Shown here one piece after another: positions 3,415 through 59,344 of a DNA stretch of 64,000 nucleotides. Source of the DNA: Terriglobia bacterium (GTDB lineage Bacteria > Acidobacteriota > Terriglobia > 20CM-2-55-15). The stretch's first letter is position 1. Each line of letters opens with the position of its first letter. The stretch is from the NCBI GenBank assembly GCA_965198265.1, contig CBDAPB010000026.1, forward strand, positions 61,614-125,613, written 5' to 3'. The notes beneath the pieces are model-generated. The model ran no database searches. It had not been told where the DNA came from and saw nothing but the letters and a program-made list of their open reading frames with translations. Made by a program: the position numbers and the translations under genes.

Positions 3415-5803
3415 CGCACTGATCGTGGGCATCGTCGCTTCACCCTACCTGGATCCGTTCTTCGTTTGGGTGACCCTGATTCCGACCCTGCTGCTCTCCC
3501 TCCTCCGTCCCAAATGCCTGTTGCTCGCCCTCTGTTTAATGGGAGCCGGCCTTCGCGCAAACCAGGAAGTCCGGCCTCCGGTAATCTTAGATGACGGATA
3601 CGCGCGGCGGGTCGTCGCCGTGCTGGAAGGACCGCCCGAATGGAGGGATCCCGGTTACCACTTCGATGTCGACATCCGGACGCTCGACGGACAACCATGG
3701 CGCGGCCGGGCCCGGCTCTCCTTTTTCCCGCACGACGACAAGCTGGACAAGCTGTTCCGCAACCTGGGGTTGGGAACCGGAGATCGCGTCGAAGTCCTGA
3801 CCCGCCTTCGCCCGCCACGCTCCTACCGCAACCCTGGCGTGTTCGACTACAGACGCTACCTGGCCCGTCAGGGAATATTCTGGGCTGGTTCGATCCGAAA
3901 CCCGCGATTGATTCAGGTCCTCAACGGATCCTGGCATGGTGAGGACAGACTTCGGAAGTCGGTCACCGAACGCATCGGCCGGTTCTTCGAGGCTGACGAA
4001 ACAATCCGGGGTCTGGTACTGGGCATGGTTCTGGGACAGCGCCGGAGACTTCCGGCCGATGACGTTCGCCGGTTCCAGGCGGCCGGCCTGATTCACCTCC
4101 TCGTCGTGTCGGGCTTCAACCTCGCGGTCGTGGCCGCAACCGCCCTGTGGCTCGGGCGGCGTCTTCGGTTCGGACGGTTCCAGAGAGCCGGACGATATCT
4201 CTTCGCGCTCGTCGCGATCCTGACCTACGCCGCTCTGGTCGATGGCCAGAGTCCCGTCGTGCGGGCAACGCTGATGGCATCGATCCTGATTCTAGGAAAG
4301 CTGCTGGACCGCGGTTACACGGTCGGCAACGCGCTGGCGGCGAGCGCAATCCTGATTCTGATAGCGGACCCGTCGGCGCTCGAGGATTCCAGCTTCCAGC
4401 TTACATTCGCGGCGGTGCTGGCCATTCAAGTCCTGGGATCGCCGCTGATTCGGTGGTGTCTCGGGTGGCTTCGGCTAGCTTTGCGGGATTTCTCCAGGAC
4501 AGAGCCGGACATGGTGCTGCCGTCTGACGTTGCCGATTGGCGCGTGTCAAGACGCCTCCGCTGTGAGCTCGGCGGATGGCCGCACAGGACGATCACACTA
4601 CCGTGGACGATCCTCACCGCGTTCGCTGAAACGGCCCTCGTCACGCTGTGCGTACAACTGGTTCTCACCGGGTTCATGGTCGAATCTTTTCACCTGCTCT
4701 CCCCCGTCACGGTCCCGCTCAACGTGGTGGGCGCGGCCGTCGCGGCCATCATCACACCGCTGGGCCTGCTCCTGATCCTCCTGCCCCACTTCGCGGGTCT
4801 TATCGTAGCCAGACTCATGTCTGCCCTGCTCCATTTCCTGATCCTGTCGGTCGATCTGGGCCTGCGAGTCCCGGGTGCCAGTTTTCGGGTGCCGTCACCG
4901 CCCGGCGAGGTCTGGGCAATTTACGCCCTGACCGTTCTCGCGTTCATGTTCTCGATTCGCCGACGCTCGCCCCGTGCGGCGCTGTTGAGCCTGGCAGCCG
5001 CCTACACTCTGCAGGCTTTGATCGTCATCGCGGATTTCGACCCGGTTCCGCCGCGACACACTACCGTGACCTTCTTGGATGTCGGCCAGGGGGATTCGAG
5101 TCTGGTCGAACTCACCGACGGCACGCGCGTTCTCATCGACGCGGGGGGTTCCGCCACGGCACGCTACCGGTCGGCTGACGGCCAGGGGACGTTTTCTGTA
5201 GGAGAAGACGTCCTGACGCCCTACCTCTTCTCGCGCGGCATCCGCCATCTAGACGTCGTCGCGCTGACACACGCCCACCACGATCACATGGGCGGTCTGT
5301 TCGATCTGATCCGGAATTTCCGGATTGGTGAGATCTGGCTCGGTCGGAACCCCATGACGGTGCGCTACCGCGAGTTGTTGCAGGAGGCATATGAGCACCA
5401 GATTCCCATCCGCTGGCTTCGGGCGGACGATCGAATCAAAGCTTTCGAAGTGTTGAACCCACCGCGGGACTGGAAAGCGGCCGGCAAGGTAAAGAATGAC
5501 GACTCGCTCGTCTTACTCTTGAGAACCGAGGACGGGTCTGCGTTCTTGACCGGGGATCTCGAACGTTCCATTCCGGCACCGGATCTGGTGGACGTGCTGA
5601 AAGTCCCGCACCACGGCAGCAAGAACACAAGCCTCAAGGTTCGTGCGCTAATCCCAGTGATTTCCGTCGGAGCGAACAACCCGTTCAGACACCCCCACCC
5701 GACCAAGCTGCCGGCCCTCCGCACCGACATCCTGGGAGCCATCCAGGTCGTGCTGACCCCGGACGGCCCGGTGGTGTCGTTCCCTGGGCTGAAGGAAAAA
5801 TAA
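3350..5803 (+). CDS. comEC: DNA internalization competence protein ComEC/Rec2 with metallo-beta-lactamase domain
   Basis: Multi-TM N-terminal region, DUF4131-like segment, and a C-terminal MBL domain (HAHHDHMGG, VLKVPHHGS). Start uncertain. Confidence 0.85.
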   Translation: MCAQHLASTWSTEFLLPRRLLAALIVGIVASPYLDPFFVWVTLIPTLLLSLLRPKCLLLALCLMGAGLRANQEVRPPVILDDGYARRVVAVLEGPPEWRDPGYHFDVDIRTLDGQPWRGRARLSFFPHDDKLDKLFRNLGLGTGDRVEVLTRLRPPRSYRNPGVFDYRRYLARQGIFWAGSIRNPRLIQVLNGSWHGEDRLRKSVTERIGRFFEADETIRGLVLGMVLGQRRRLPADDVRRFQAAGLIHLLVVSGFNLAVVAATALWLGRRLRFGRFQRAGRYLFALVAILTYAALVDGQSPVVRATLMASILILGKLLDRGYTVGNALAASAILILIADPSALEDSSFQLTFAAVLAIQVLGSPLIRWCLGWLRLALRDFSRTEPDMVLPSDVADWRVSRRLRCELGGWPHRTITLPWTILTAFAETALVTLCVQLVLTGFMVESFHLLSPVTVPLNVVGAAVAAIITPLGLLLILLPHFAGLIVARLMSALLHFLILSVDLGLRVPGASFRVPSPPGEVWAIYALTVLAFMFSIRRRSPRAALLSLAAAYTLQALIVIADFDPVPPRHTTVTFLDVGQGDSSLVELTDGTRVLIDAGGSATARYRSADGQGTFSVGEDVLTPYLFSRGIRHLDVVALTHAHHDHMGGLFDLIRNFRIGEIWLGRNPMTVRYRELLQEAYEHQIPIRWLRADDRIKAFEVLNPPRDWKAAGKVKNDDSLVLLLRTEDGSAFLTGDLERSIPAPDLVDVLKVPHHGSKNTSLKVRALIPVISVGANNPFRHPHPTKLPALRTDILGAIQVVLTPDGPVVSFPGLKEK

Positions 5804-5974
5804 CCACGGAGGCGCGGAGGCACGGAGGGGTGTATGGGTTGAGTCGTTCACCCACTTTTCTGGGTAGTGAACATTCGGGGACAGGGCCCGGCCCGTGTCC
5901 CCCTCACATCCCTTCTCTCACGGCAACCGTACGCCCACCGAAAGACCTCCGCGCCTTCGTGCCTCCGTGGTTAA
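5803..5974. repeat. Family-2 hairpin element: inverted arms of C(A/G)CGGAGG x3
   Basis: aaccacggaggcgcggaggcacggagg ... cctccgcgccttcgtgcctccgtggtt, with internal GC hairpins. Begins at the comEC stop. Confidence 0.8.
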
Positions 5975-8051: not shown

Positions 8052-8096
8052 AGCAGCCCGTGGCGGAAGTCTGATGGTTCGCGCGCAGGGGTTGCT
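8052..8096. repeat. solo terminus of the MITE-B element
   Basis: cagcagcccgtggcggaagtctgatggttcgcgcgcaggggttgc matches the left end of the elements at 47055 and 51551. No partner arm is nearby. Confidence 0.6.
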
Positions 8097-10896: not shown

Positions 10897-10919
10897 CCCC
10901 CCCCCAGATCGTCGCCCTT

Positions 10920-11063
10920 TTTTCACCGCAAAGACGCAAAGGCGCAGAGTCAAAGACTCTGAAGCTGCGCCTTCTTAGCCTCGTCTCTCCACTAGTTGCA
11001 TGGAAGGCGCCGCACTCTGGCTGCAGAAGAACAAGGCCTTTGCGTCTTTGCGCCTTTGCGGTT
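10920..11063. repeat. Family-1 hairpin element
   Basis: tttcaccgcaaagacgcaaaggcgcagag ... cctttgcgtctttgcgcctttgcggtt. Abuts the stop of the M16 peptidase gene. Confidence 0.8.
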
Positions 11064-13779
11064 AATTCGTTCCCCTGAGGATGGCGATCTTGGCTGTGTC
11101 GGGGCTGAGGTATCTGGCGGCGACGGATTGGATGAACTCCAGGCCGACGAGCTGGATGTTCCCGCTGAATTCATCGACTGCCGAGACGCCGGTGCCGGCG
11201 TACACCGAGCGCGCGTAAGTCAGGACGCGTCCCAGACGGGTCTGGAGCTGGATTTCATGGGCGCCAACGGAATAGTTGATACCCTTCTGAAGTTCGTCTT
11301 CGGTGATCCCGTCCGCAATCAGCCGCTTGATCTCCGCTTCCAGCGACTCGAGCACCTGCGCTTCGTTCGCCGGCGAAAAGGCCGTGTAGGTAAACACTGC
11401 ACCGGCCTTGGCCAGCAGGACATCCGACGCCATTACGGTGTAAGCCAGACCCTGCTGCTCGCGGATCGTCTCGAAGAAACGGCCGCCCAGGCCCGAAACG
11501 ACATTTCCAAGTACCTTCAGCGCAAACCGGTCCGGATTCGAGTTCGTCGGCCCGACGAAACCGTAGACCAGAGCCGTCTGCCGCCTGGAGGCTGACTCGA
11601 CGTTCTCCTCACGCTCCAGGTCGACGTCGGGGATCGGCAGCGTGGAGATGTCGCGCTCAAACAGATCCTCGTTGGTCAACGCTTCTGCGATCGAAGCCAC
11701 GAGCCCGGTGCCCTGCGTGTCGCCGACGATCACGATGAGAGGAACCAGCGTTCGCTGATGGAGCTGATGCCACTCGGCCAGATTTTCCCGGGTCAGGGAT
11801 CGAAGCGTCTCTTCGGTACCGACCGCCGGACGGGCATAGGAGTGCCCGTCAAAGACGGTGGACATGAACAGCTGCACGGGGTAGCGAAGATTGTCCTCGC
11901 GGAGCTTGCTGATTCGAGCCTGCTGCAGGCTGCGCTCGAGTTCCACCTCTTCGTCGGGAAACGCCGGCTCCTGGAGGATCTCGATCAGAATCTCCAGCGC
12001 TTGGTTCATCTGTCCGCTGACGCCGTCCAAGATGTAACCGAAGAAATCCTGTTCGTTGACGACCTGGATCCGAGCGCCTGCGTTTTCAAGCCGACGCCCG
12101 ATATCGGCGGTGTTGTACCGGCGGGTACCCCGCAACGCACTGCGCAGCATCAACTCGGTGATGCCCGCATTCGTCGCAGATTCGTAGAGACGCCCTCCGG
12201 GATAGAAAATCCCGAACGAAACCAGCGGCAGCCGATGGTCCTCCAGAACATACACATCGGGGCCCCGGAGGATCGAACTTCGGACGATCGGCCGCACGAG
12301 GTCTTGAACGAGCTCCTGGTCGACAAGCCGCACCTCGGCCGAGACGGGTAGTTCTTCCACAGACCGCTCGATCACTGCCTGACCCACCAGCCGGAGCACA
12401 TTGTCGCGAAAATCTGCGTTAGAAAACGATCGAGTCACCGACGCGGGCAGGTACTCGAACAGGCCGAGGTTCTCATTGCTAAGGTAGGCGTTAGCGACGC
12501 GAGAGACATCGGAGGCCGCCACGCTCAGGATGCCGGGCAGGTACGCGTCCGCCCGCTTCCAGTCTCCGAGCGCCTCGTGACGGGACAGTTCTTCGGCGAT
12601 GCCATCGACCGTCTCGAGTCGATGGTAGAACTCCTGAGCCAGCAAAGCCTTCGCCCGGGACAGTTCCTCACCGGTCACCCCGAACTGTTTGACCTGCTCG
12701 ATCTCGGCCAGTGCAGCGATTTCCGCATCGATAGGCGATGCCGCTGTTTCCAATGTGATCTCGAAATAACCGAGGTCTCTGAAGCCGGACAGCGAAGCGG
12801 AAGCGCTGCTGATAATGCCCTGCTCATCGCGGAGAAACCGGTTCATCCGGGATGCCCGTCCGGTGGTCAGAATCGACCGGAGGACCTCGAGCGGGTAGCG
12901 ATCATCGGAACGGGCGTCGGGAACATGGTAGCCGATCGCAATGTGGCTCTGCTCGTGGCTTCCACGCTCCCAGTTGTACCGGAAGCTTGCCTGGGATCCC
13001 TCCGAAGGGGCGGAATCCCTCTCAACAGCCGTGTCTTCGGCGTCCCCGTAGAGCCGGATGACTTGCTCCAACATCTCTTCCCGCTCGAACCGGCCGACGA
13101 GAGTCAGTATGATGTTCGACGGCTGGTAGTACTTCCTGTAGTAGGCCACGATGTCGTCCCGCGTCAGCGCCCGCAGCCCCTCGGCGCTGCCGATTCGCCA
13201 TCGCCGCATTCGATGACTGCGGAACGCGGTCTCGTACAGCCTCTCGGACGCCACCGCAGGGGGGTTGTCCAGCTTTCTGTTGTTTTCCTGCAGGATTACT
13301 TCGATCTCGCGAGCGAGTTCTTCATCATCAAGTGTCGGATTCCACAGCGCATCGGCCTGGATGTCCATCGCCGCTACGGTGTTCTCTGCCGGCACGACGG
13401 CCCGGTACACGGTACGGTCGTAAGCGGTATAGGCGTTCAGGTAACCTCCAAGGGCCTTGGTTTGCCTCGCAATCTGACCGACCGGCCGCTTTGGCGTTCC
13501 TTTGAAGAACATGTGCTCGATCACATGGGAGATCCCCGAGATCCGATCGGGCTCGTCGAAGTACCCCACCTTGACGTGGGTCGTCACGCTGGTCAACGGG
13601 ATGGCGTTCTGCTCTCGAACGATCACGGTCAGACCGTTCTGCAGGATGACTTTCGTCGTCTGTCCGACGTCTTCTCTGAAAATATAGGGTCCCACGATTT
13701 CTCCGGCTATCGGTACTTCAGGAATTGGTATCGGCAACTGCGGAATGACCTGCAGAAAAAGAAGGAAAGCCAGAAACAT
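11062..13779 (-). CDS. M16 family zinc peptidase with two tandem M16 units (pitrilysin-like)
   Basis: Signal peptide; inverted zinc motif HVIEHMFFKGT; length consistent with a duplicated M16 fold. Confidence 0.85.
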   Translation of the reverse strand: MFLAFLLFLQVIPQLPIPIPEVPIAGEIVGPYIFREDVGQTTKVILQNGLTVIVREQNAIPLTSVTTHVKVGYFDEPDRISGISHVIEHMFFKGTPKRPVGQIARQTKALGGYLNAYTAYDRTVYRAVVPAENTVAAMDIQADALWNPTLDDEELAREIEVILQENNRKLDNPPAVASERLYETAFRSHRMRRWRIGSAEGLRALTRDDIVAYYRKYYQPSNIILTLVGRFEREEMLEQVIRLYGDAEDTAVERDSAPSEGSQASFRYNWERGSHEQSHIAIGYHVPDARSDDRYPLEVLRSILTTGRASRMNRFLRDEQGIISSASASLSGFRDLGYFEITLETAASPIDAEIAALAEIEQVKQFGVTGEELSRAKALLAQEFYHRLETVDGIAEELSRHEALGDWKRADAYLPGILSVAASDVSRVANAYLSNENLGLFEYLPASVTRSFSNADFRDNVLRLVGQAVIERSVEELPVSAEVRLVDQELVQDLVRPIVRSSILRGPDVYVLEDHRLPLVSFGIFYPGGRLYESATNAGITELMLRSALRGTRRYNTADIGRRLENAGARIQVVNEQDFFGYILDGVSGQMNQALEILIEILQEPAFPDEEVELERSLQQARISKLREDNLRYPVQLFMSTVFDGHSYARPAVGTEETLRSLTRENLAEWHQLHQRTLVPLIVIVGDTQGTGLVASIAEALTNEDLFERDISTLPIPDVDLEREENVESASRRQTALVYGFVGPTNSNPDRFALKVLGNVVSGLGGRFFETIREQQGLAYTVMASDVLLAKAGAVFTYTAFSPANEAQVLESLEAEIKRLIADGITEDELQKGINYSVGAHEIQLQTRLGRVLTYARSVYAGTGVSAVDEFSGNIQLVGLEFIQSVAARYLSPDTAKIAILRGTN

Positions 13780-13826
13780 ACAAACAGTTTACCGCAGCGC
13801 TTGCCCGAGTAGTTTCGGCGAATCGT

Positions 13827-14004
13827 TTTTCACCGCAAAGGCGCAAAGACGCAAAGGTTATATACCCCCAAGCCGCCTATGATTCCGATTATTCGATACG
13901 GTATCGCTGAAACAAAAAAGCCTATCGCCGTGAGGCATGTTGCGGGTCAGGTGGCGCTGTATCGGCATGAATTAAAAAAATCTTTGCGTCTTTGCGCCTT
14001 TGCG
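13827..14004. repeat. Family-1 hairpin element, long variant with a conserved 50-nt inner motif
   Basis: Arms caccgcaaaggcgcaaagacgcaaag / tctttgcgtctttgcgcctttgcg. Inner motif ggcatgttgcgggtcaggtggcgctgtatcggcatgaat. Confidence 0.8.
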
Positions 14005-14005
14005 A

Positions 14006-14443
14006 TCAAACATCTTCGTCCGCACCGCTCTCAAGTTGAATCTGGCGAGCATTCGCGTCGACGTAGGTCAGGGTGACGCGTGTGGCGGGACCGGGGTCGA
14101 AGTTGCCGAGACGTTCGGCCCATTCCACGACCACCGCGGCCGCGGGTTCATCGAACATGTCTTCCAGGCCCAGATCGTCGAGCTCGCCTGACTCGATGCG
14201 ATAGAGGTCGACATGGTAGATCGGCATCCGCGCCGCGTACTGATTGACGAGCGTGAAGGTCGGGCTGGATACCTCGCCGACGTCCTCCAGACCCAGGCCG
14301 GCGGCCAACCCCTTCGCGAACGTTGTTTTTCCGGCTCCGAGTTCACCGAAGAGCAGGACGTGAACCGGCAGTTCCAGCGTGCCGGCCAGTTCCCGGGCAA
14401 ACTCGAACGTTTGCTCCTCAGACTGGGAAAGAAAGCTCGTCAT
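14006..14443 (-). CDS. tsaE: tRNA t6A37 biosynthesis ATPase TsaE
   Basis: Walker A motif (FGELGAGKTTFAKG) and the YHVDLYRIE motif. Start trimmed to MTSFLSQ because the longer ORF extension runs through the repeat. Confidence 0.85.
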   Translation of the reverse strand: MTSFLSQSEEQTFEFARELAGTLELPVHVLLFGELGAGKTTFAKGLAAGLGLEDVGEVSSPTFTLVNQYAARMPIYHVDLYRIESGELDDLGLEDMFDEPAAAVVVEWAERLGNFDPGPATRVTLTYVDANARQIQLESGADEDV

Positions 14444-14452
14444 CGGGGGTAT

Positions 14453-14720
14453 TTCACCGCAAAGGCGCGAAGGCGCAAAGGCTGTATTCGCACAAGGAAG
14501 GCTCCAGTTCACCGTTGCGGTCTCTCTATACGTAGATGTCCTTTTCACGTAGAAACGAAAAAAACGAAGGACAGACGAGGACTAGTTCCGAAAAAATCTT
14601 CGTTCACTTCGCTTCTTCGTGTCGAAACAACGATCTATCGTCTTGAGGCACGTTGCAAGTCAGGTGGCGCTGCATCGGCATGAATGAACAAGATCTTTGC
14701 GCCTTCGCGCCTTTGCGGTG
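14453..14720. repeat. Family-1 hairpin element, long variant (second copy of the inner motif)
   Basis: Arms tttcaccgcaaaggcgcgaaggcgcaaagg / tctttgcgccttcgcgcctttgcggtg. Inner motif ggcacgttgcaagtcaggtggcgctgcatcggcatgaat. Confidence 0.8.
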
Positions 14721-14726
14721 AAAAAA

Positions 14727-19140: not shown

Positions 19141-19165
19141 ATCGCAAATCCGAAACGGAAGAAGG

Positions 19166-19232
19166 TTCACCGCAAAGACGCAAAGGCGCAAAGGAACCTT
19201 GTCTTCTTTGCGTCTTTGCGCCTTTGCGGTGA
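19166..19232. repeat. Family-1 hairpin element (short-loop form)
   Basis: ttcaccgcaaagacgcaaaggcgcaaagg aacc ttgtcttctttgcgtctttgcgcctttgcggtgaa. Confidence 0.85.
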
Positions 19233-19239
19233 AAAAAAG

Positions 19240-19758
19240 ATGTCAAAAATACTGGAACAGAGGGTTGAGTATGAAGGGCGGCGGATTACGGTGCGTCGGG
19301 ACCGGATTATCGAGCCGTCGGGCAAGGAAGGGATCCGTGACGTCGTTTTGCATCCCGGTGCCGTCTCGATCCTCGCGTGGTCGAAACCCGATGAGATCGT
19401 CTTGATACGGCAGTACCGCCATGCGACTGGTGAGGAGCTTCTCGAGCTTCCTGCCGGAACGCTGGAGGAAGGAGAAGATCCAATCGATACTGCTCGGCGC
19501 GAACTGGAGGAAGAAACCGGTTATCGCGCGGGCAGGATCAAACACTGTGCCACCTACTACACCACTCCCGGCTTCACCAACGAGCTCATGTATCTCTATG
19601 AAGCCTCCGATCTGGAAGCAAGAGAACAGCGGCTCGAAGACGACGAAGCCATCGACGTCGTCCCAACGCCCTGGGAGGACGCCCTTCGCATGGTCCACGA
19701 CGGCAGGATTCGCGACGCAAAAACACTCGTCGGCCTCCTGATGGTTAGTGGCCTGTAA
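19240..19758 (+). CDS. NUDIX hydrolase (ADP-ribose pyrophosphatase-like)
   Basis: Nudix box (GTLEEGEDPIDTARRELEEETGY). Start trimmed to MSKILEQ. The TAA stop lies inside the MITE terminus. Confidence 0.8.
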   Translation: MSKILEQRVEYEGRRITVRRDRIIEPSGKEGIRDVVLHPGAVSILAWSKPDEIVLIRQYRHATGEELLELPAGTLEEGEDPIDTARRELEEETGYRAGRIKHCATYYTTPGFTNELMYLYEASDLEAREQRLEDDEAIDVVPTPWEDALRMVHDGRIRDAKTLVGLLMVSGL

Positions 19759-20019
19759 CGGAGATATCGGCACCATCGCCGATGGGTCTTGCCAGTCGAG
19801 GTCGAGGAGAGAGGAGGAATTGATGCGGTCTCATCATGACGACGAACGACAAAGAGATCGACGGCAACCCCCATCGGCCCGGAGGGTTGCGGCGGAACGG
19901 CAACGTCTTCGTTGTCGCTCCTCCTCGCAATGTAGGAGCATTACCTCGTCGTCGGCTCCTAGAATCCGGTGCCGTTCCACCGCAACGCTGGTACCGATAT
20001 CTCCGTTACAGGCCACTAG
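19746..20019 (+). mobile_element. MITE-A copy 1 (about 275 bp, ~28 bp terminal inverted repeats, TA-flanked)
   Basis: TIR tagtggcctgtaacggagatatcgg ... ccgatatctccgttacaggccactag. Internal core gaggaggaattgatgcgg...ggcaacccccatcggcccggagggttgcgg. Flanked by TA/TA. Confidence 0.8.
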
Positions 20020-20028
20020 CGCTGCTCC

Positions 20029-21252
20029 ATGAGAACGACTCCCCTGAGCCGGTTGCAGTCTCTGGAGGCGTGGCGCAAGAACCAGATCGCGGTCACGGTG
20101 TCGGGGTCGTTCGTCTTTTTCGGCTTCACGCTGGTCATGCCGTTTCTGCCGCTGTATGTGCGACAACTCGGGGTCGAAGGAACCGGCGCGATCGCACTGT
20201 GGACGGGTCTGATTCTGAGCATCAGTCCCGCGATGGCCGCTTTGACGGGACCGATCTGGGGACGTATAGGGGATCGGATCGGGCTGAAACCGATGGCCAT
20301 CCGGGCGACCGGGGTGAACTGCCTTTGCTGGTTGGGGATGGCGTTTGCCGGCAACGTCTGGGAACTGTTTTTGCTGCGAGCCGCTCTGGGTCTGCTCGGA
20401 GGGTTCAACAGTGTCTCAATAGCGGCCGTCACCCAGTTGTCACCCAAGGAAAAGATCGGCAGCGTCATCGGCACCCTGCAGTCGTCGCAGATCTTCGCCG
20501 CGGCGATCGGGCCACTCGTCGGCGGCATCCTGGCGGGCTTGATCGGCATCACGAACACGTTCTTCGCGACCGCGATGCTGATGTTCGGATCGTTTCTCAG
20601 CATCATGCTGTTCTACCAGGACGCCGAACGAAGATCTGAACAAGCGGACGAACCCGAGCAGCGGGTCGACCGAAGCTTCCTAAAGCATCCCGAGTATGTT
20701 CTTCCTCTGTTTCTCCTGTTCTTCATCCACATGAGCTTCCGCACGTTCAATCCGATCGTCCCCCTGTTTCTCGAGGAACTGGGAACAGCGGCCACGCGCC
20801 TCGCCGCGATATCTGGGGCGTTGATCTCCATGGCGGCTTTCGGTGAAGCCTTTTCGGCCTGGCTTTCAGGAAGACTGGCGGACAGGGTGGAACTCCGGAA
20901 GCTGATGGCGATTCGGCTCGCACTCGGGCTTCTCGTGCTGGTGCCCATGGTTGGTGTCCAGAGTCCCGGCGGCTTTTTCGCGCTACGGGTGGCGCTGACT
21001 CTACTATCGGGGGGTATGATGACACTGGCCTTTAGCGCCGCCGGTCGGGTGATTCCAGGCGAACACCGAGGTACGGGTTTCAGCGTCCTTTCGAGCACTT
21101 CACTGTTCGGCGGAGCGGCGGGCCCGATCATCGCCGGCGCTCTTGCCGGTCTCAGCATCCGCACGGTGTTCGTCTTCAACATCGTCATCTACACGGCCCT
21201 GATGCTGGCCGTCACGCGCATCGGACGGAGGTCGGGTGTAGATCAAACGTGA
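20029..21252 (+). CDS. MFS transporter
   Basis: Twelve predicted TM segments and the MFS motif GRIGDRIG. Start is 9 nt after the MITE end. Confidence 0.8.
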   Translation: MRTTPLSRLQSLEAWRKNQIAVTVSGSFVFFGFTLVMPFLPLYVRQLGVEGTGAIALWTGLILSISPAMAALTGPIWGRIGDRIGLKPMAIRATGVNCLCWLGMAFAGNVWELFLLRAALGLLGGFNSVSIAAVTQLSPKEKIGSVIGTLQSSQIFAAAIGPLVGGILAGLIGITNTFFATAMLMFGSFLSIMLFYQDAERRSEQADEPEQRVDRSFLKHPEYVLPLFLLFFIHMSFRTFNPIVPLFLEELGTAATRLAAISGALISMAAFGEAFSAWLSGRLADRVELRKLMAIRLALGLLVLVPMVGVQSPGGFFALRVALTLLSGGMMTLAFSAAGRVIPGEHRGTGFSVLSSTSLFGGAAGPIIAGALAGLSIRTVFVFNIVIYTALMLAVTRIGRRSGVDQT

Positions 21253-23556: not shown

Positions 23557-23634
23557 GTCCAAGGTCCGAGGTCCTGTCATGCGATCGGCGACATTGGACC
23601 TTGGACTTTGGACTTTGGACGTCGGACTTGGACT
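23557..23634. repeat. TTGGACC/GGTCCAA heptamer-based palindromic element (copy 2)
   Basis: gtccaaggtccgaggtcc ... ttggaccttggactttggactttggacgtcggacttggac. Confidence 0.7.
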
Positions 23635-23649
23635 GATATGATCATCCCG

Positions 23650-23795
23650 AACTTCGGATGAGGGAAAGCGGTGAGATTCCGCTGCTGCCCCGCAACTGTA
23701 AGACGACTCTTCCCAGCTACAGCCACTGCCAGCCACGCTGGCGGGAAGGCGCCCGCGAAACCGCTGTCGTCAAGCCAGGACACCTCCCGGAGGAG
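23650..23795 (+). promoter_or_regulatory. cobalamin (B12) riboswitch
   Basis: agggaaagcGGTGAgattCCgctGCTGCCCCGCAACTGTAAg ... aGCCACTGccagcc ... GGGAAGGCgcc ... gtcaaGCCAGGAcACCTcc matches the conserved cores of the B12 element. It lies in the 5' UTR of a TonB-dependent receptor. Confidence 0.75.
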
Positions 23796-23819
23796 ATTAC
23801 CTTTCGAGGGAGAGGGACC

Positions 23820-25967: not shown

Positions 25968-26842
25968 ACAACATCGGACGATCCGCGGGCGCGCTGGTGT
26001 GCGCCCTCATGCTGCTGTCGTGCTCGGAATCCCAGACTGTGGAAATCCCTCGGCCAGAGGCTCCTGAACGAATCGTTTCGCTCGTGCCCGCCGTGACGGA
26101 AATGCTGTTTGCGCTCGGGGCTGGTGAACGGGTCGTCGGTGTCAGCGACTACGACACCTATCCACCAGAAGTCCTGCGTTTGCCGAAGGTCGGGGCACTC
26201 ATCAACCCGAACCTGGAGAAGATTTTCGAACTGCAACCGGAAATGGTGATCACCTACGGAACCCAGTCCAATCTGCGAGAGCGGCTCGACGCCGCCGGAA
26301 TCCGCTCATACTCTTTCCTTCACGGCCCGATCGACGACATGCTGGATTACGTGCTCGAACTGAGCCGTGAACTCCGTATGGAGAACGAGGGGCGCCGCCT
26401 GGTCGACGAAATCCGGGGTGAGCTGGACGCAATCCGAGGCGGCGCGTCCGGGTATCGACCTCGTGTTCTACTGGCCCACAGCCGGGAAGTGGGCACGATG
26501 GGGTCGTTCTACAGCGGAGGCGGCGAATCGTTCTTCAACGAGCTGATCGACATCGCCGGCGGTGTCAACATCTTTGGCGATGTCGAGGACGACTCGATCC
26601 AGCCATCACTAGAAGAGGTTCTCAAACGCCGGCCCGAGATCATCATCGAGCTGCTGCCGTCCAACAGGGATGACCCGGATCAGATCGCCCAGCGAATCCA
26701 GGATTGGAGGCAGCTCAAGACCCTGCCCGCGGTTCAACGGGAACGTGTCCACGTCATTGCCGGCGATTACCTCCTCCTCATTGGCCCCCGACTCCACCTC
26801 GCCGCCCGACGATTGGCTGAAGTGATTCGGGAAGAAGAATAA
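25949..26842 (+). CDS. btuF: periplasmic cobalamin/siderophore-type ABC substrate-binding protein (BtuF-like, lipoprotein)
   Basis: Lipobox LLSC; class-8 SBP pattern (RIVSLVPAVTEMLFALGAGERVVGVSDY...LQPEMVITYG). Confidence 0.7.
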   Translation: MGWRTLNNIGRSAGALVCALMLLSCSESQTVEIPRPEAPERIVSLVPAVTEMLFALGAGERVVGVSDYDTYPPEVLRLPKVGALINPNLEKIFELQPEMVITYGTQSNLRERLDAAGIRSYSFLHGPIDDMLDYVLELSRELRMENEGRRLVDEIRGELDAIRGGASGYRPRVLLAHSREVGTMGSFYSGGGESFFNELIDIAGGVNIFGDVEDDSIQPSLEEVLKRRPEIIIELLPSNRDDPDQIAQRIQDWRQLKTLPAVQRERVHVIAGDYLLLIGPRLHLAARRLAEVIREEE

Positions 26843-27133
26843 CCACGGAGGCGCGGAGACACGGAGGTCCCTTTTTCATTGAGCCGAGGAGTTCAAGAGA
26901 TGGCTCGGGCGTGGGGGGGGCCGGACCAGCTGTCTTTCTCCGGAATCGTTCCCAATGAGTGTAGTCGTCGAACGCTCTCGTTCGCGGTGAGAGGGGGACG
27001 GTGGGCCCGACGCTAAAGAATGGTCGGGGACAGGGGCCTGGCCCTGGCCCCGGGTGTCGGCTCTAGCAGAAACGTCGGTTAACGACTCACCTGCCTACCA
27101 AAAAACTCCGCGCCTCAGTGCCTCCGTGGTTAA
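26841..27133. repeat. Family-2 hairpin element (long form, about 290 bp)
   Basis: aaccacggaggcgcggagacacggagg ... ctccgcgcctcagtgcctccgtggtt, with GC-rich internal hairpins (gtcggggacaggggcctggccctggccccgggtgtcgg). Confidence 0.8.
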
Positions 27134-32064: not shown

Positions 32065-32337
32065 AGTGGCCTGTAACGGAGATATCGGCACCATCGCCGA
32101 TGGGTCTTGCCAGTCGAGGTCGAGGAGAGAGGAGGAATTGATGCGGTTTCATCATGACGACGAACGACAAAGAGATCGACGGCAACCCCCATCGGCCCGG
32201 AGGGTTGCGGCCCAACGGCACCGTCTTCGTTGTCGCTCCTCCTCGCAATGTAGGAGCATTACCTCGTCGTCGGCTCCTAGAATCCGGTGCCGTTCCACCG
32301 CAACGCTGGTACCGATATCTCCGTTACAGGCCACTAG
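32065..32337 (+). mobile_element. MITE-A copy 2
   Basis: Near-identical to copy 1 (cagtggcctgtaacggagatatcggcacc...ggtaccgatatctccgttacaggccactag). Left flank is CA instead of TA. Confidence 0.8.
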
Positions 32338-33208: not shown

Positions 33209-33252
33209 GCTACGCCTGACTGCAACCGCACGCCAAGCGTCAGATTTCGTTT

Positions 33253-33427
33253 CCACCGCAAAGGCGCAAAGACGCAAAGAGAGGAGTTTTCTTTCTTCGC
33301 TGCCACCTCCGCGTCTCTGCGCCTCCGTGGTGATAGGCAGCGTTTCGGTTCGGATTCCCGACAGGGGCGGCCAATCTCCGCCACGAAGCGAGAAAATAAC
33401 CTTGCGTCTTTGCGCCTTTGCGGTGAC
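33253..33427. repeat. Family-1 hairpin element containing a lone family-2 arm
   Basis: ttccaccgcaaaggcgcaaagacgcaaag ... cttgcgtctttgcgcctttgcggtga. cacctccgcgtctctgcgcctccgtggtg (33303-33332) is a family-2 arm nested inside. Confidence 0.75.
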
Positions 33428-35218: not shown

Positions 35219-35250
35219 AGTAGTCAGTAGTCAGTAGTCGGTAGTCAGTT
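35219..35250. repeat. AGTAGTC heptamer tandem array (left arm of a split palindrome)
   Basis: agtagtcagtagtcagtagtcggtagtcagtt. The complementary arm aactgactaccgactacgactact lies at 35489-35513. Confidence 0.7.
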
Positions 35251-35267
35251 AGGGATCAGAGTGAGGC

Positions 35268-44740: not shown

Positions 44741-44838
44741 CAGGTCCGAGGTCAGGACAGTATGGACCCGACTTTGGACCTTGGACTTTGGACTTCTTAG
44801 CTCGACCTCGGACCTTGGACTTCCGACTCCTGGACTCT
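44741..44838. repeat. TTGGACC/GGTCCAA heptamer-based palindromic element (copy 3)
   Basis: caggtccgaggtcagg ... gactttggaccttggactttggac ... cctcggaccttggacttccgactcctggac. Confidence 0.7.
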
Positions 44839-44854
44839 GTGCTATCCTCAGACC

Positions 44855-45397
44855 ATGTCGAACCCGGACCTCCTGAACCAGGCGGACAAGATCCTCCGAC
44901 CGGTATTACGCAAGCTGACAAACGTCCCCTGGATGAAGGTGACGGCCTGCTGTGCGGGGCACGAACCGGAAGACAGCGTGTGGATCGAGGTGCATGTACG
45001 GGGATCGTCCGGTTTGAGCAGATTGATGGAACTGCTCAGGGTGCTGGAGGGAAAGCTGGCCGGTACTGACTGCCGGGCGGACTGCCTCGTAAACTACGGA
45101 ACAGATGCGGAGGCGGTTCGCATCCAGCACGGATGGTTCCCGATTGTCGTCGAGGTTTTCTGGCCGTCGAAGGACGACTGGAGGCGCGGGCAGGCGCTGA
45201 TTGTCGAAGCCCTGCTGTCTTCGGTCGAAGAATTCGGGGACCGTATCGACGACGCGACACAGCCTGAAGGCGCGATCGTCTATTGCCCGTACTGCTCCTC
45301 CTCGTTCATCAAGCTGGAGGGATTCGAACCCTCAGGGCATCGGTACCTCTGCGGCGATTGTGAAACTCCGTGGACGATGATTGATCCTTCCATCTAG
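44855..45397 (+). CDS. hypothetical protein with C-terminal zinc ribbon
   Basis: 180 aa; C-terminal CPYC...CGDC motif. No family recognised. Confidence 0.45.
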   Translation: MSNPDLLNQADKILRPVLRKLTNVPWMKVTACCAGHEPEDSVWIEVHVRGSSGLSRLMELLRVLEGKLAGTDCRADCLVNYGTDAEAVRIQHGWFPIVVEVFWPSKDDWRRGQALIVEALLSSVEEFGDRIDDATQPEGAIVYCPYCSSSFIKLEGFEPSGHRYLCGDCETPWTMIDPSI

Positions 45398-45584
45398 TGA
45401 CCTAGTTCGACACCACGCCCCCAACCTCCATTCCGGTATATATCCGAAGCGTCCTCGGGCCGGGCGCCTGCGTCGTGGAGCGTTCCACCCACGCCCCCTG
45501 ACGGATAGACGCCGGGTACAAGAACGCGGTCGTCGGTAGTGGGCAAGTTCTTGCCCACTACGGAGTCATCGTGCGCGTTCCAAC

Positions 45585-45859
45585 TAGAGTGACCTGTAAC
45601 AGTGCTATCGGTACCAGCGTTCGGCGGAACGGCGTCGGATTCTAGGAGTGACGCCCGAGCCAATGCTGTTTCATTGCGAGGGCGTTACGACACCGAAGAC
45701 GGCGCCGTTGGGCCGAACCCTTCGGGCCGATGGGGGTTGCGGGCGATCTCTTTGTCGGAAGCCGTCACCGATGAATGAGCATCGCTTTCCGTCTCCCTCC
45801 TCGACCTCGCCCGCAAGACCCATCGGCGATGGTACCGATAGCATTGTTACAGGCCACTA
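45585..45859 (-). mobile_element. MITE-A-like copy (diverged, inverted orientation)
   Basis: tagagtgacctgtaacagtgctatcggtaccagcg ... ggtaccgatagcattgttacaggccactac. The internal core is recognisable but carries many substitutions. Flanked by TA/TA. Confidence 0.6.
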
Positions 45860-45907
45860 CAAACCGGTTCATGGTATAAAGCTCGGTTACGTTTCGACGG
45901 AGGAAGC

Positions 45908-47054: not shown

Positions 47055-47329
47055 TAGCAGCCCGTGGCAGAAGTCTGATGGTTCGCGCGCACGGGTCTTG
47101 CGAGGCGGAGACGAGGCGCGAGGAGGAACTGATGCGGTTTCATCATGACGACGAGTAACAAAGTATCCGACCGCAACCCCCGTGCGCCCGGAGGGTTACG
47201 GCGGCGTCACACCATCTGCGTTGTTGCCACACCTCAACGATGTACCCGCATCGCAGTCGGCGCGGCGCCTAGCATCTGGCGCAACGCCGCCGTAACGCGA
47301 GCCATCAGACTTCTGCCACGGGCTGCTAG
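47055..47329 (+). mobile_element. MITE-B copy 1 (same core as MITE-A, different termini)
   Basis: TIR tagcagcccgtggcagaagtctgatggttcgcg ... cgagccatcagacttctgccacgggctgctag. Core gaggaggaactgatgcggtttcatcatgacgacgag... TA flanks; the left TA is part of the acyl-CoA dehydrogenase stop codon. Confidence 0.85.
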
Positions 47330-49578: not shown

Positions 49579-49640
49579 TCAGTTGGGGTGTGCGAACTGC
49601 AAACTGATAACTAACTGACTACCGACTACTGACTACTGAT
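49567..49640. repeat. AGTAGTC / GACTACT heptamer-array hairpin
   Basis: agtagtcagtagtcagtt ... aactgactaccgactactgactactg, about 27 bp apart. Confidence 0.75.
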
Positions 49641-49650
49641 AACTAAGATC

Positions 49651-50601
49651 ATGTCCGTCTTGTTTAACGAATCGAGCGAGCTCCGATCCGGCTGGAAGTT
49701 TGCCATCTATCTCTTGATCTTCGGCCTCTTGCTGTTCGCCGCGGGCGCCTTGATCTCGGCCCTACTGGATCCTTCCTTGGCCGAGAGCGAGGTCGGCTTG
49801 CTGGGTCTCAATGCGATCGCGCTGCTGATCCCGGCCGTCGGCGCCTTGCTGTTCATGGTTCGCTTTGTCGATCGCATCCCGGTTTCCACGTACGGCGTCG
49901 CGATGCATGAGAAGTGGGGGCGGGATCTCGTGCTGGGTCTACTGATTGCGCTGGCAATGTTGCTGCTCTTCGACCTCGTTGGCGCCGTAGTCGAAAACCT
50001 CAGCATAGAAACCGCTGTACATGGTGACGGCTTCTGGTTGAACTTCCTGCTCATCCTCGCAATGCTCGGCGTTTCCGCCGCCAACGAAGAACTCGTTTTC
50101 AGGGGTTACCCCTTGCAGGTATTGATGGCCGGTATCGGCGCGTGGCCGGCAATGATTCTTCTGTCGGGGCTTTTCGGCTTGCTGCACCACTTGAACCCGG
50201 GGGCGACGTGGCTGGGGACGACGAACACGTTTCTGGCCGGGATACTCCTGTCGGTGGCGTACCTGCGGACCCGATCGCTCTGGTTTCCCTTCGGCATTCA
50301 CATCGGCTGGAACGTAGCGATCGGACCTGTTTCGGGGTATGCCGTCTCGGGCATCCAGATCAGTTCCATCTGGACGACCGAAATGTCGGGAGCGGACTGG
50401 TTTACCGGGGGTGCGTACGGACCGGAGGGAGGCGCCCTCGGTTCCGTGGTCATGATAGCCGCGATCGGCACGGTGCTCGCCACCCGGAGGGTCGAAATCA
50501 GCCCGACTCTCCGCAGACTTCTACAGGATCATTCGAAAAAGGTGTATGCGAAGGACATCGTGGGTTCCGCCCGGAACATTGTCGAACCGTCGCCATCATG
50601 A
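49651..50601 (+). CDS. CPBP family intramembrane glutamic endopeptidase (CAAX protease/Abi)
   Basis: EELVFRGY...LSGLFGLLHH...FGIHIGWN motifs 1-3 and multiple TM helices. Confidence 0.75.
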   Translation: MSVLFNESSELRSGWKFAIYLLIFGLLLFAAGALISALLDPSLAESEVGLLGLNAIALLIPAVGALLFMVRFVDRIPVSTYGVAMHEKWGRDLVLGLLIALAMLLLFDLVGAVVENLSIETAVHGDGFWLNFLLILAMLGVSAANEELVFRGYPLQVLMAGIGAWPAMILLSGLFGLLHHLNPGATWLGTTNTFLAGILLSVAYLRTRSLWFPFGIHIGWNVAIGPVSGYAVSGIQISSIWTTEMSGADWFTGGAYGPEGGALGSVVMIAAIGTVLATRRVEISPTLRRLLQDHSKKVYAKDIVGSARNIVEPSPS

Positions 50602-50638
50602 TTAGTACGCATTCTTCTCAAGGGTTGCAGGGAGCGCG

Positions 50639-51553
50639 ATGAAATCCTCGATACTGGTTGTCGGTTCTGTGGCGCTGGATTCGGTGAAGACACCCTTCGG
50701 CGAAGTGGACGACGCGCTGGGCGGATCGGCAACCTATTTTTCTGTAGCCGCCAGCTTCTTCTCCCCGGTCCGAGTCGTCGCGGTCGTCGGAGATGATTTC
50801 AGCGATGACCACTCCGCGATCTTCAAGCGCCATAACATCGACACCGACGGTCTGGTGCGGGCCGACGGGCGAACCTTCCGCTGGAAGGGGGAGTACAGCT
50901 ACGATCTCAACGAGGCGCGAACACTCGACACACAACTCAACGTCTTCGAGGCGTTCAAACCTGAGATACCAAAATCCTACAGGGGTTCGGAGTACGTCTT
51001 TCTGGGCAACATCGACCCCGAACTCCAATCCCAGGTTCTGGAACAAATCGAACACCCGAAAGTTGTCGCCTGCGACACGATGAATTTCTGGATTGACGGC
51101 AAGCTGGACGAACTGAAGCGCACTCTCGGCAAGGTCGACATCCTCATCATCAATGACGGAGAGGCTCGTATGCTCGCCGGGGAGGCCAACCTCGTGCGGG
51201 CGGCGGGTAAGATAATGGCAATGGGCCCGAAAATCCTGATCGTGAAACGCGGGGAGTACGGAGTGCTGATGTTTAACGAAGGTTCGGTCTTCGGAGCGCC
51301 GGCCTTCCCGCTGGAGGAAGTCTACGATCCGACCGGGGCGGGAGATTCATTCGCTGGAGGGTTCATAGGCTATCTCGCCGAGTCCGGAGAACTGACCGAC
51401 GAGGTGTTCCGCCGATCGATCATATTCGGCTCGGTTATGGCTTCGTTCAACGTGGAACAGTTCAGTCTCGACGGTCTATCCAAGCTGACGCGCACCGACA
51501 TCGATTCGCGCTTCAGACAGTTCAAGAAGCTGACACACTTCGAAACACTCTAG
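50639..51553 (+). CDS. PfkB family carbohydrate kinase
   Basis: N-terminal GG motif region and C-terminal DPTGAGDSFAGGF. The TAG stop is the first three bases of the MITE-B terminus. Confidence 0.8.
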   Translation: MKSSILVVGSVALDSVKTPFGEVDDALGGSATYFSVAASFFSPVRVVAVVGDDFSDDHSAIFKRHNIDTDGLVRADGRTFRWKGEYSYDLNEARTLDTQLNVFEAFKPEIPKSYRGSEYVFLGNIDPELQSQVLEQIEHPKVVACDTMNFWIDGKLDELKRTLGKVDILIINDGEARMLAGEANLVRAAGKIMAMGPKILIVKRGEYGVLMFNEGSVFGAPAFPLEEVYDPTGAGDSFAGGFIGYLAESGELTDEVFRRSIIFGSVMASFNVEQFSLDGLSKLTRTDIDSRFRQFKKLTHFETL

Positions 51554-51824
51554 CAGCCCGTGGCAGAAGTCTGATGGTTCGCGCGCACGGGTCTTGCGAG
51601 GCGGAGACGAGGCGCGAGGAGGAACTGATGCGGTTTCATCATGACGACGAGCAACAAAGTATCCGACCGCAACCCCCGTGCGCCCGGAGGGTTACGGCGG
51701 CGTCACACCATCTGGGTTGTTGCCGCACCTCAACGATGTACCAGCATCGCAGTCGGCGCGGCGCCTACCATCTGGCGCAACGCCGCCGTAACGCGAGCCA
51801 TCAGACTTCTGCCACGGGCTGCTA
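51551..51824 (+). mobile_element. MITE-B copy 2
   Basis: Near-identical to 47055-47329. Lies between the PfkB stop and the dapF start (ATG 4 nt after the element). Confidence 0.85.
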
Positions 51825-51827
51825 ACC

Positions 51828-52649
51828 ATGATCCCTTTCGTAAAGACAAACGCGCTGGGCAACGACTTCATCCTGATCGCGGACACCGACGTGACCGGCG
51901 ACGCTCCCAAGCTGGCGACTCGGATATGCGATCGCCACTTCGGCGTCGGCGCAGACGGGCTGATCGTATGGAAGCCGGGCAACGAAGGCGCTGAGATTCG
52001 GATCTTCAACATGGACGGCAGCGAGGCGGAGTGCTCCGGGAACGGCCTGCGATGCGTAGCAGCCTACCTGATGGACCTGGAGCGGTTCGACAGCGAGCAG
52101 ATCGAACTCAGGACGGTTTCAGGCAGTTACCCGATTCGACGGGTCGGCGCAGGGTTCGAAACGGCCATGGGCGAACCCGGGTTGAAGCCCGAGGAGATAC
52201 CGTTCACGGACGCAGATGGGCTCGAATGCATCGTCGATTACGCCCTGGAGGTCGACGGCAGCCCGGTTCGCATCACTGCGTGCTCGACGGGCAATCCACA
52301 CTGTTCCCTGTTTGTCGACTCGATCGAAGCCGGCATGATCGAGAACCTGGGGCCGAAGCTGGAGAATCATCCGGCCTTCCCGAACCGGACGAACGTGGAG
52401 TTCGTGCACGTACGAAACCGGCGTGAAATCGAAGTCGCGTTCTGGGAACGGGGGGTCGGTCTGACTTTCGCATCCGGAACAGGATCGTGCGGCGCGACCG
52501 TGGCCTCGATCTTGAACGGCAGGACCGAACGGCAGGTCCGGGTCCACACCCGAGCAGGAAAGCTCGACGTGGAGTGGGCCGAAGACGGCAAACTGAAGCT
52601 CACTTCGACGGCGGAAGTCGTCGCCGAAGGCCGGTACATGGATTCCTGA
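51828..52649 (+). CDS. dapF: diaminopimelate epimerase
   Basis: NALGNDF..., SGNGLRC, and GNPHC catalytic cysteine motifs. Confidence 0.9.
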   Translation: MIPFVKTNALGNDFILIADTDVTGDAPKLATRICDRHFGVGADGLIVWKPGNEGAEIRIFNMDGSEAECSGNGLRCVAAYLMDLERFDSEQIELRTVSGSYPIRRVGAGFETAMGEPGLKPEEIPFTDADGLECIVDYALEVDGSPVRITACSTGNPHCSLFVDSIEAGMIENLGPKLENHPAFPNRTNVEFVHVRNRREIEVAFWERGVGLTFASGTGSCGATVASILNGRTERQVRVHTRAGKLDVEWAEDGKLKLTSTAEVVAEGRYMDS

Positions 52650-52660
52650 ACGAACTCGCT

Positions 52661-53638
52661 ATGAAACAGCTTCTTGACGTGATCATCATCGGAGCCGGTC
52701 CAACCGGCCTCGCCGCGGGGATCGAGGCGCAGAGATACGGTCTCGATTACTTGATCATCGAGAAAGGCTGTGTCACCAACTCGATCTTCCACTTCCCGAT
52801 CCAGATGGTGTTCTTCACCACTCCCGAACGGCTGGAAATCGGAAACATGCCTCTGGTTTGCGAACGGGAGAAGCCGAACCGCAACGAGGCACTCAAGTAC
52901 TACAGGAAAGTGGTCGAGGCCATCGGCCTGGCGGTTCACCAGTACGAGGAGGTCCGAAACGTGGGGCGCGAGGGCCAAACGTTCGTAGTCGAGATCTCTG
53001 GCGCCAACTATAAGGCCCGGACCCTCGTCCTCGCGACCGGATACTACGACAACCCGAACTCCCTGGAGATTCCCGGTGAGGATCTCCCTCATGTGTCGCA
53101 CTACTACACCGAGGCCCATCCTTTCTTCGATCGGGACGTCGTCGTCATCGGCGGGAAGAACTCGGCCGCCGAGGCCGCACTCGAGCTCTTCCGAACCGGT
53201 GCCCGAGTGACGCTGATCCACCGGGGAAGCGAACTGGGGGCGTCGGTCAAGTATTGGGTCCGGCCGGACATGCAGAATCGGATCGACCGCAAGGAGATTC
53301 AAGCGTATTTCGACACAACGGTGGAGCAGATCCTGCCAGACCGGGTTCGGGCCCGGAGGAATTCACACACGTTTGAGATCCCGGCGCAGCAGGTATTCGC
53401 CCTGACCGGCTACCGCCCCTCCACCAAGTTCTTCACCCAGCTCGGTGTTCACTACGACTCGGAGATACTGGAACCCGAGTACGATCCCGACACCTACGAA
53501 ACGAACGTGCCCGGTGTCTTTCTGGCCGGGTCGATAGTGGCGGGAACGAAGAACCGCGAGATATTCATCGAGAACGGGCGCTTCCACGGGGAAATCGTCA
53601 TGAAGACGATCGCGGAACGCCTCGGCAAACTTGGCTAG
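52661..53638 (+). CDS. YpdA-family FAD/NAD(P)-dependent disulfide oxidoreductase (bacillithiol-disulfide-reductase-like)
   Basis: GAGPTGL Rossmann motif, IIEKGCVTNSIFHFPIQMVFFTTPERLEIG, and C-terminal FAD motifs. Start trimmed to MKQLLDV. Confidence 0.65.
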   Translation: MKQLLDVIIIGAGPTGLAAGIEAQRYGLDYLIIEKGCVTNSIFHFPIQMVFFTTPERLEIGNMPLVCEREKPNRNEALKYYRKVVEAIGLAVHQYEEVRNVGREGQTFVVEISGANYKARTLVLATGYYDNPNSLEIPGEDLPHVSHYYTEAHPFFDRDVVVIGGKNSAAEAALELFRTGARVTLIHRGSELGASVKYWVRPDMQNRIDRKEIQAYFDTTVEQILPDRVRARRNSHTFEIPAQQVFALTGYRPSTKFFTQLGVHYDSEILEPEYDPDTYETNVPGVFLAGSIVAGTKNREIFIENGRFHGEIVMKTIAERLGKLG

Positions 53639-53680
53639 CTAGCCTGACCCGACATATCGTCACACCGACACGATTCGTGT

Positions 53681-53754
53681 TCACCGCAAAGGCGCAAAGA
53701 CGCAAAGGGAGAAAGAAATATCAATTCTTTCCGACCTTTGCGCCTTTGCGGTGA
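53681..53754. repeat. Family-1 hairpin element (short form) between convergent genes
   Basis: tcaccgcaaaggcgcaaagacgcaaaggg ... cctttgcgcctttgcggtga. Confidence 0.8.
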
Positions 53755-53812
53755 AAACAAAAGGGCGGCCCGCTGGCCGCCCTTCTTTCGTCGATTGAAA
53801 TGTTGAATCGGG

Positions 53813-55403: not shown

Positions 55404-55496
55404 AAGTCAACGATTGTAACACACCACCGATTGTGCTAATTTCGGGCTTCTCCTGCCTTTGAGGAGCCCCGTTTATAAGGTTCGAGGGACCCCAGT

Positions 55497-59340: not shown

Positions 59341-59344
59341 GTGA

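Follow-up and report, generated by a model that had tools for sequence, protein, structure and literature searches.

A 64-kb stretch of DNA from a Terriglobia bacterium (contig CBDAPB010000026.1; hereafter the window, meaning the whole of the DNA analysed) is dotted with copies of a repeat that we interpret, at a probability of about 85%, as a ~270-bp non-coding miniature inverted-repeat transposable element (MITE) which inserts at TA dinucleotides, preferably within C-TA-G, and is of the IS630/Tc1-mariner type, with its transposase outside the window. The repeat has terminal inverted repeats (TIRs) of ~30 bp, duplicates TA, is present or absent between close relatives and belongs to a large family in the Acidobacteriota; IS630-family elements with identical termini, TA duplication and a C-TA-G target also exist. 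A TA-duplicating, non-autonomous element of this kind had been proposed from the sequence alone (the original prediction), a proposal supported by empty sites, by TA tallies in 56 further copies and by an IS630-family element with the same termini.

Exactly six full copies, each 269 to 271 nucleotides (nt) from first G to last C, emerge from repeat finding, from aligning the six with one another and from searching the window with a profile. Three belong to subtype A: 19748-20016 (plus strand, 269 nt), at the junction of NUDIX and MFS genes between TA dinucleotides at 19746-19747 and 20017-20018; 32066-32334 (plus strand, 269 nt), in the divergent intergenic region between an EPSP synthase gene on the minus strand and a gene for an RsbW-like HATPase_c_2 protein; and 60396-60666 (minus strand, 271 nt), after the stop of the DUF2817 gene and before a Mg-chelatase-like gene, with TA..TA within C-TA-G. 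Subtype B is represented by 47057-47326 (plus strand, 270 nt; TA..TA in C-TA-G context), which begins 4 nt after the stop of an acyl-CoA dehydrogenase (ACAD) gene and ends 24 nt before meaB, and by 51553-51822 (plus strand, 270 nt), at the PfkB/DapF junction between TA at 51551-51552 and at 51823-51824. The sixth copy, 45589-45857 (minus strand, 269 nt), has degenerate flanks and is of a third subtype, A'. A truncated remnant, a solo B-type left end of 41 nt with 95% identity to its intact counterpart, lies at 8052-8092 (plus strand), with a LysM/SLT gene on one side and a gene for an ECF sigma factor on the other. The six copies and the solo end had been predicted, as had the flanking genes, whose identities Pfam bears out, and for both of the core motifs first pointed out the window contains five or six occurrences, where shuffles give an expectation of 0.00. 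Identity is 98-99% within subtypes, 69% between A and B and 80% between A' and A. The two subtypes originally distinguished are therefore three, and the copy at 45585, which had been called diverged, is not decayed, since it is 99% identical to copies in another metagenome-assembled genome (MAG), CBDAOY01.

Pairing between the TIRs runs to ~30 nt, longer than the 25-27 nt first quoted, and the inverted termini measure 29-36 nt in 69 of the 85 copies scored. The claim that every window copy is bounded by TA...TA holds for four of the six; the copy at 32066 has CA..TA, its left TA having mutated, and that at 45589 has GA..TA on the plus strand, each one base off. With ends taken from the common alignment, perfect TA/TA flanks were found in 36 of 56 copies outside a subfamily termed type C (see below), a further 18 being one base off, and the outer context is C-TA-G in 24 of the 36 perfect cases. 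A 4-bp CTAG duplication is ruled out by copies with T, A or G as outer bases.

Syntenic 20-kb loci of relatives (L167 to L172) were reached through their PfkB orthologues, the nucleotide identities of relatives to the window being 92.6%, 87.3% and 72%. Family copies are absent from all of these loci, and the alignment blocks are interrupted exactly at the elements (45515-45860, 47059-47325 and 51555-51822), so that copies 45589 (in L167, L169 and L171), 47057 and 51553 are missing from the relatives. The comparison with syntenic loci, which the original prediction had put forward as a check on TA duplication, gave one clean empty site: at the PfkB/DapF junction, L167 to L170 have a single TA in place of copy 51553, the empty allele reading CACTT-TA-GCCATG and the window CACTC-TA-[element]-TA-ACCATG. 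At the ACAD/MeaB junction the relatives lack the element plus 2 nt, with GCGCC-TC-GCTCCC in L167 and L168 against GCGCC-TA-[element]-TA-GCTCCC in the window. These differences of one element plus two bases imply that the elements are mobile and recent. Between the window and a MAG with a backbone identity of 92.6%, copies of the element match at 99%, which indicates recent activity or transfer. At 45394-45405 (plus strand), by the stop codon of a 180-amino acid (aa) open reading frame (ORF), the sequence CTAGTGACCTAG contains 8 extra nt (TA plus GTGACC) relative to L167, L169 and L171. GTGACC is the A'/E-type terminal hexamer of the MITE family, and the site is probably the excision or deletion scar of a lost copy.

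No element combining the family termini with a gene was found in ~660 kb of genome loci. A metagenome scan in which an A-type terminus was required and the MITE interior excluded returned 83 loci, among them a complete 1116-bp element from a soil metagenome (L121), TA-GTGGCCTGTAACATTGAAATCG...GTTACAGGCCAC-TA, in the target gaC-TA-Gtc. Its terminal 14 nt are A-type, TA-GTGGCCTGTAAC at both ends, and its 355-aa ORF contains PF13358 DDE_3 and HTH domains and matches the IS630 family transposase model NF033545 at 239 bits (cut-off 100). Relatives of this ORF (41-99.7% aa identity) stand beside the same terminal motif at nine other loci, in six of which a matching right end was found ~1.1 kb off. 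The protein family is abundant in soil metagenomes, with 498 members in one cluster. The L121-type terminus also bounds 13 clusters of unrelated fold-back MITEs of 82-281 nt, and the scan recovered a further member of the structured family with that terminus (L125). Between the MITE interior and the L121 insertion sequence (IS), no homology was detected beyond the 14 terminal nt. A candidate for the predicted autonomous partner has been located in metagenomes for subtype A, with none for subtype B and none in the window.

Other transposable elements near family copies were considered as partners and rejected. An IS256-like gene beside a B-type end (L044) belongs to an IS256-family element with its own ~44-nt inverted repeats and an 8-bp duplication (CAGACTTC), inserted in a MITE TIR. 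The IS3-family element in L008, the IS1380-family elements in L001, L013, L074 and L077, the IS4-like element in L019 and L072 and the IS5-like element in L002, L029 and L065 are all unrelated insertions with different ends, and the TIRs of an IS630 element in L015 and L022 (TAGTGGTCCCCGTCAAACAG) are only loosely similar to those of the family.

A scan of species-representative genomes, with the central motif GCAACCCCCNTNNGCCCGNAGGGTT as search pattern, found at least 82 further family loci, nearly all in Acidobacteriota MAGs. The listed loci come from Terriglobia, Thermoanaerobaculia and Polarisedimenticolia, plus two Gemmatimonadota and one 'Deltaproteobacteria' bin, and have in common the ~270-nt architecture under termini of at least six types: A (GTGGCCTGTAAC), B (GCAGCCCGTGGC), C (GTACTCCCTTYCAT, with end motifs also given as GTACTCCC and GTACTCMCTTYCATAAATAC), D (GGAGCCTGTCCG), E (GTGACCTGTACC) and F (GTGTCCTGTCCC). 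The type C subfamily is homologous to the window family and is found outside the window, for example at L006 753-1031 and L059 7148-7426. A related MAG holds at least 20 copies, and the density in the window is ~1 copy per 10 kb. Keyword and sequence-fragment searches found no description of the family in the searchable literature, and as far as that literature shows it is a previously undescribed MITE family of the ordinary IS630-type kind, with two unusual features, a conserved branched interior under diversifying TIRs and a sister subfamily with a 3-bp target site duplication (TSD).

Length variants also occur, with an additional 60 nt in L015, L024, L053, L069 and L076, an additional 35 nt in L022 and L044, further variants in L012 and L031, and shortened forms in L042 and L056. 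Some have extra hairpins in the left-arm or right-arm loops and others a short hairpin in place of the right arm; the junction and the TIRs are retained in all. At ~155-720 of L018, a copy of A'' type adjoins, end to end and with one common TA, a B-like copy whose centre has diverged, the element ends plus TA regenerating CTAG-like targets.

The interior of the element is dominated by a conserved fold. RNAalifold predicts 79 pairs from 25 diverse copies, forming a perfect four-way junction of TIR stem, left arm, CC-GNA-GG mini-hairpin and right arm. In the reference copy at 19748-20016 these parts are the left TIR (19748-19777), the left-arm stem (19778-19803 with 19854-19878) and an apical hairpin (19821-19836), the mini-hairpin, here CC-GGA-GG (19879-19885), the right-arm stem (19886-19899 with 19973-19986) and the right TIR (19987-20016). 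Pairing was possible in 95.8% of cells, against 76.3% in shuffles and at most 46% with partners slid, and in the 29-pair outer helix it reached 96%. Both sides have changed in 51 of the 79 pairs, a number attained by none of 500 shuffles. L125 retains the fold with a wholly different left-arm stem of perfect complementarity. Additional inter-arm pairing of GAGGAGG with CTCCTCC and of GACGACGAG with CTCGTCGTC, seen by eye, was rejected as subtypes E and A' alter one side only.

Copies stand close to genes, and the stop codons at their edges deserve comment. The NUDIX ORF ends at a TAA (19756-19758) lying 12 nt inside the TIR, as had been predicted, and because the ORF runs these 12 nt into the element the C-terminus of the protein is altered. 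The PfkB and DUF2817 genes had also been thought to owe their stops to the element; this is not so, as in alleles without the element both genes already terminate with TAG at that position (...CTT TAG for PfkB in L167, ...TCC TAG for DUF2817 in L001), and the stop is rebuilt from TA and the first G of the element. Approximately 30 of 74 copies adjoin the stop codon of a long ORF, an association explained by the CTAG target preference since stops of this sort account for roughly one in three CTAG sites across those loci, in keeping with the earlier view that TA targets in this GC-rich genome fall at stop codons. The position of copies at stops and just before starts is probably a by-product of the CTAG/TA preference combined with loss of gene-breaking insertions. 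The first ~60 residues of the 237-aa 'RsbW' ORF are element sequence.

Several observations count against assigning these elements to an IS630-type transposase, or complicate that assignment. The TSD of type C is 3 bp, perfect in 12 of 18 copies (eight TTA, three TAA and one TAC) in a C-TWA-G context, which is unlike known IS630/Tc1 elements, described as inserting at TA only (PMC2170065). The empty ACAD/MeaB allele has TC instead of TA. No IS630 gene was found in the window by tblastn, the IS630 element matching subtype A has been seen in metagenome contigs only and not in a genome proven to hold copies, and the sole IS630 of a MITE-bearing MAG (L015/L022) has merely related TIRs. Neither the genome loci nor viral-contig scans for B and C termini yielded a partner for subtype B or type C. 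The TIR match to L121 was partly forced by the scan pattern, which fixed 19 of the first 24 TIR positions, and beyond the fixed positions the A-type TIR of the window and the L121 element differ. Invariance of the central motif across loci is likewise partly ascertainment, GCAACCCCCNTNNGCCCGNAGGGTT having been the search pattern. Lastly, the interior is better conserved than the TIRs (between A and B, 81% identity in the left arm against 49-53% in the TIRs), which inverts the pattern of most MITE families and which TIR recognition alone does not explain. Mobilisation by a transposase of the IS5 family (IS427/IS1031/ISL2-type) or a PIF/Harbinger-like one, in place of IS630, would be an alternative. 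These families also favour CTAG/CTNAG-like targets and make duplications of 2-4 bp, the type C duplications of TTA or TAA in C-TWA-G fit such behaviour, as would the C-TA-G preference of the other subtypes when set against ISfinder family descriptions, and IS5-like elements reside in the same MAGs (L002/L029/L065). We nevertheless regard this alternative as very unlikely, given that complete IS630-family elements have exact A-type termini with TA flanks while the IS5-like, IS4-like, IS1380, IS256 and IS3 elements of the loci have unrelated ends, that window copies duplicate 2 bp and the TWA duplication is restricted to type C, and that the type C TIR keeps positions of A (G12, T13, C17, T20, C23 and A24), suggesting divergence and not replacement.

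The conserved interior invites explanations of its own. It might be a structured non-coding RNA, either a small RNA or a cis-regulatory element (ribosome binding site (RBS), processing site or terminator), that rides on the transposon and is selected through the neighbouring genes, as would suit the very strong covariation seen in the two arms and in the two apical hairpins, the GAGGAGG-N5-7-ATG motif present in 24 of 25 diverse copies, the placement of copies at operon junctions within a few nt of start and stop codons, and the reported action of Correia and ERIC elements on mRNA. Stem mismatches include a slight excess of G-U over A-C (49 against 29), but other mismatches (53) are as frequent as G-U. 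The two strands fold about equally (minimum free energy -152.7 and -154.6 kcal/mol) and copies show no orientation bias relative to tandem flanking genes (23 co-oriented, 26 anti, by a crude ORF-based gene caller), which together argue against a strand-specific RNA, RBS or promoter role. Rfam 15 gave no match at gathering thresholds anywhere in the window, and at E<=10 only chance-level miRNA and snoRNA matches; no sigma-70 promoter or intrinsic-terminator consensus was present in the three copies checked, and self-complementarity is just as strong in unrelated MITEs that share the TIR. We consequently judge the RNA interpretation to be quite improbable, and the suggestion that the core Shine-Dalgarno (SD)-ATG and hairpin add RBSs, promoters or terminators to adjacent genes is unsupported. 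That the SD-ATG starts a small protein (recurrent translations MTTNDKEIDGNPHRPGG... or MRFHHDDE...) is scarcely credible: despite the canonical SD-ATG spacing and ORFs open to the element end in several subtypes, a 1-nt indel that follows the apical hairpin leaves subtypes A and C with different reading frames through the conserved centre, substitutions are compensatory for base pairing and not synonymous, and open frames are expected in DNA of 60% GC. A coding role was rejected for want of a conserved frame, and the interior is, as judged from its sequence, non-coding. It is unlikely, though not to the same degree, that arm complementarity is kept without selection by intra-element correction (mismatch repair, or template switching in an extruded hairpin), with compensatory changes as a neutral by-product. 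Such correction would be consistent with the strand-symmetric mismatch spectrum and equal folding of the strands, with the fold-back nature of all 13 unrelated MITE clusters carrying this TIR and with the wholesale replacement of the L125 stem, but correction of arms leaves unexplained the conservation across subtypes of unpaired loops (GAGGAGG, GACGACGA and ACAAAG) and of the GNA mini-hairpin, and the 269-272-nt architecture persists across Acidobacteriota classes.

We favour a scenario in which a DDE transposase of the IS630/Tc1-mariner type, its gene lying outside the window, would act in trans to cut and paste the copies, with sister transposases presumably serving subtype B and the other TIR subtypes. 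The fold may then reflect a constraint on the DNA, alike for both strands and typical of the fold-back MITEs belonging to this transposase group, and could aid pairing of the two ends, extrude a cruciform or be kept by intra-element repair. A more far-reaching idea, possible if doubtful, is that the interior is itself the functional module, either a DNA structure acting in cis to enhance IS630-type transposition, for example a cruciform joining the ends, or a structure that hosts tolerate or exploit in transcripts. It would have persisted across Acidobacteriota classes while the TIRs co-evolved with at least six transposase lineages, one of them making 3-bp TWA duplications, which would place it among IS630 relatives with an altered stagger or else in another superfamily.

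The family resembles known IS630-mobilised MITEs (RUP of Streptococcus pneumoniae with IS630-Spn1; ISY100/IS630) in being short and non-coding, in having TIRs, a TA target and a 2-bp TA duplication, and in having termini common to an IS630-family (DDE_3) element; its C-TA-G preference is also akin to the CTAG preference of IS630. Unlike RUP-type elements, it is longer (270 nt), has a branched four-way fold, comprises at least six co-evolving TIR subtypes around one conserved interior, includes one subfamily with a 3-bp duplication and has a candidate partner known from metagenome contigs. ERIC/IRU elements of enterobacteria and bcr1 of the Bacillus cereus group are intergenic imperfect palindromes, flanked by TA or a short TSD and without their own transposase, in which compensatory changes preserve both sequence and secondary structure from species to species. 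Judged by descriptions alone, the present family is a similarly structure-conserving repeat; ERIC and bcr1, however, each form one hairpin, of 127-155 nt, and have had roles at the RNA level proposed for them, whereas here there is a strand-symmetric four-way junction, no orientation bias and a candidate transposase family. Correia/NEMIS elements of Neisseria are TA-duplicating MITEs, dense in intergenic regions near genes, with long TIR hairpins in transcripts; they measure 100-155 bp and have an IHF site and documented promoter and RNase III effects, in contrast to the lack of promoter or terminator consensus in our three copies. REP/REPIN sequences (RAYT, Y1) are also abundant intergenic palindromes, but are 20-40 nt long, tagged with GTAG/CGTC and without the combination of TIR and TSD, as against 270 nt, 30-nt TIRs and a TA duplication here.

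Further mobile and repeated sequences were noted at the locus. The ENA contig L001 is 99.99% identical to window positions 50448-60396 and diverges exactly after the CTAG of DUF2817, where it has an IS1380-family element (DDE_Tnp_1_4; L001 9947-11106) and the window has a MITE copy (60394 onward); exact look-up of two window proteins, for the far side of this IS, returned no record. In L013, L074 and L077, IS1380 copies likewise lie next to CTAG, and in one case the site is a MITE flank. The 87% relative L169 (16850-20052, compared with window 59349-60697) is without the whole DUF2817 gene and the adjacent MITE, contains a Y1_Tnp (RAYT-like) gene at 20106-20774, and at ACAD/MeaB carries a repeat of another kind, ~230 nt long with a duplication of ~11 bp (GCGGGATTAGC). 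In the window, a REP-like GTAG-tagged hairpin, GTAGTGGGCAAGTTCTTGCCCACTAC (45536-45561), lies inside a ~50-nt insertion (~45515-45570) that is absent from the syntenic L167. A triple octamer, CGCAAAGR x3, forms inverted pairs ~0-250 nt apart in many intergenic regions (1939-2071, 10918-11065, 13825-14009, 14449-14722, 19162-19233, 33248-33427 and 53676-53755), accompanied by the sister motifs CRCGGAGG x3 (5795-5974, 26834-27133 and 33301-33334), TTGGACY runs (1265, 23575-23633 and 44755-44847) and GACTACY runs (35219-35259, 43682 and 49604-49644), which constitute a second intergenic repeat system. A cobalamin riboswitch (RF00174, 87.6 bits) was identified at 23606-23805, upstream of a 769-aa ORF.

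For annotation, the MITE family matters in that it inflates and mis-extends ORF calls, as in the 237-aa 'RsbW', breaks metagenome assemblies and alters C-termini, as in NUDIX, and a family model would clean up Acidobacteriota genomes. The 3-bp-TSD sister subfamily poses a specific puzzle for transposase specificity, and the family offers a tractable test of whether the internal fold of a MITE matters for IS630-type transposition. For a soil phylum with few cultured members, it also gives a dated record of recent transposition.

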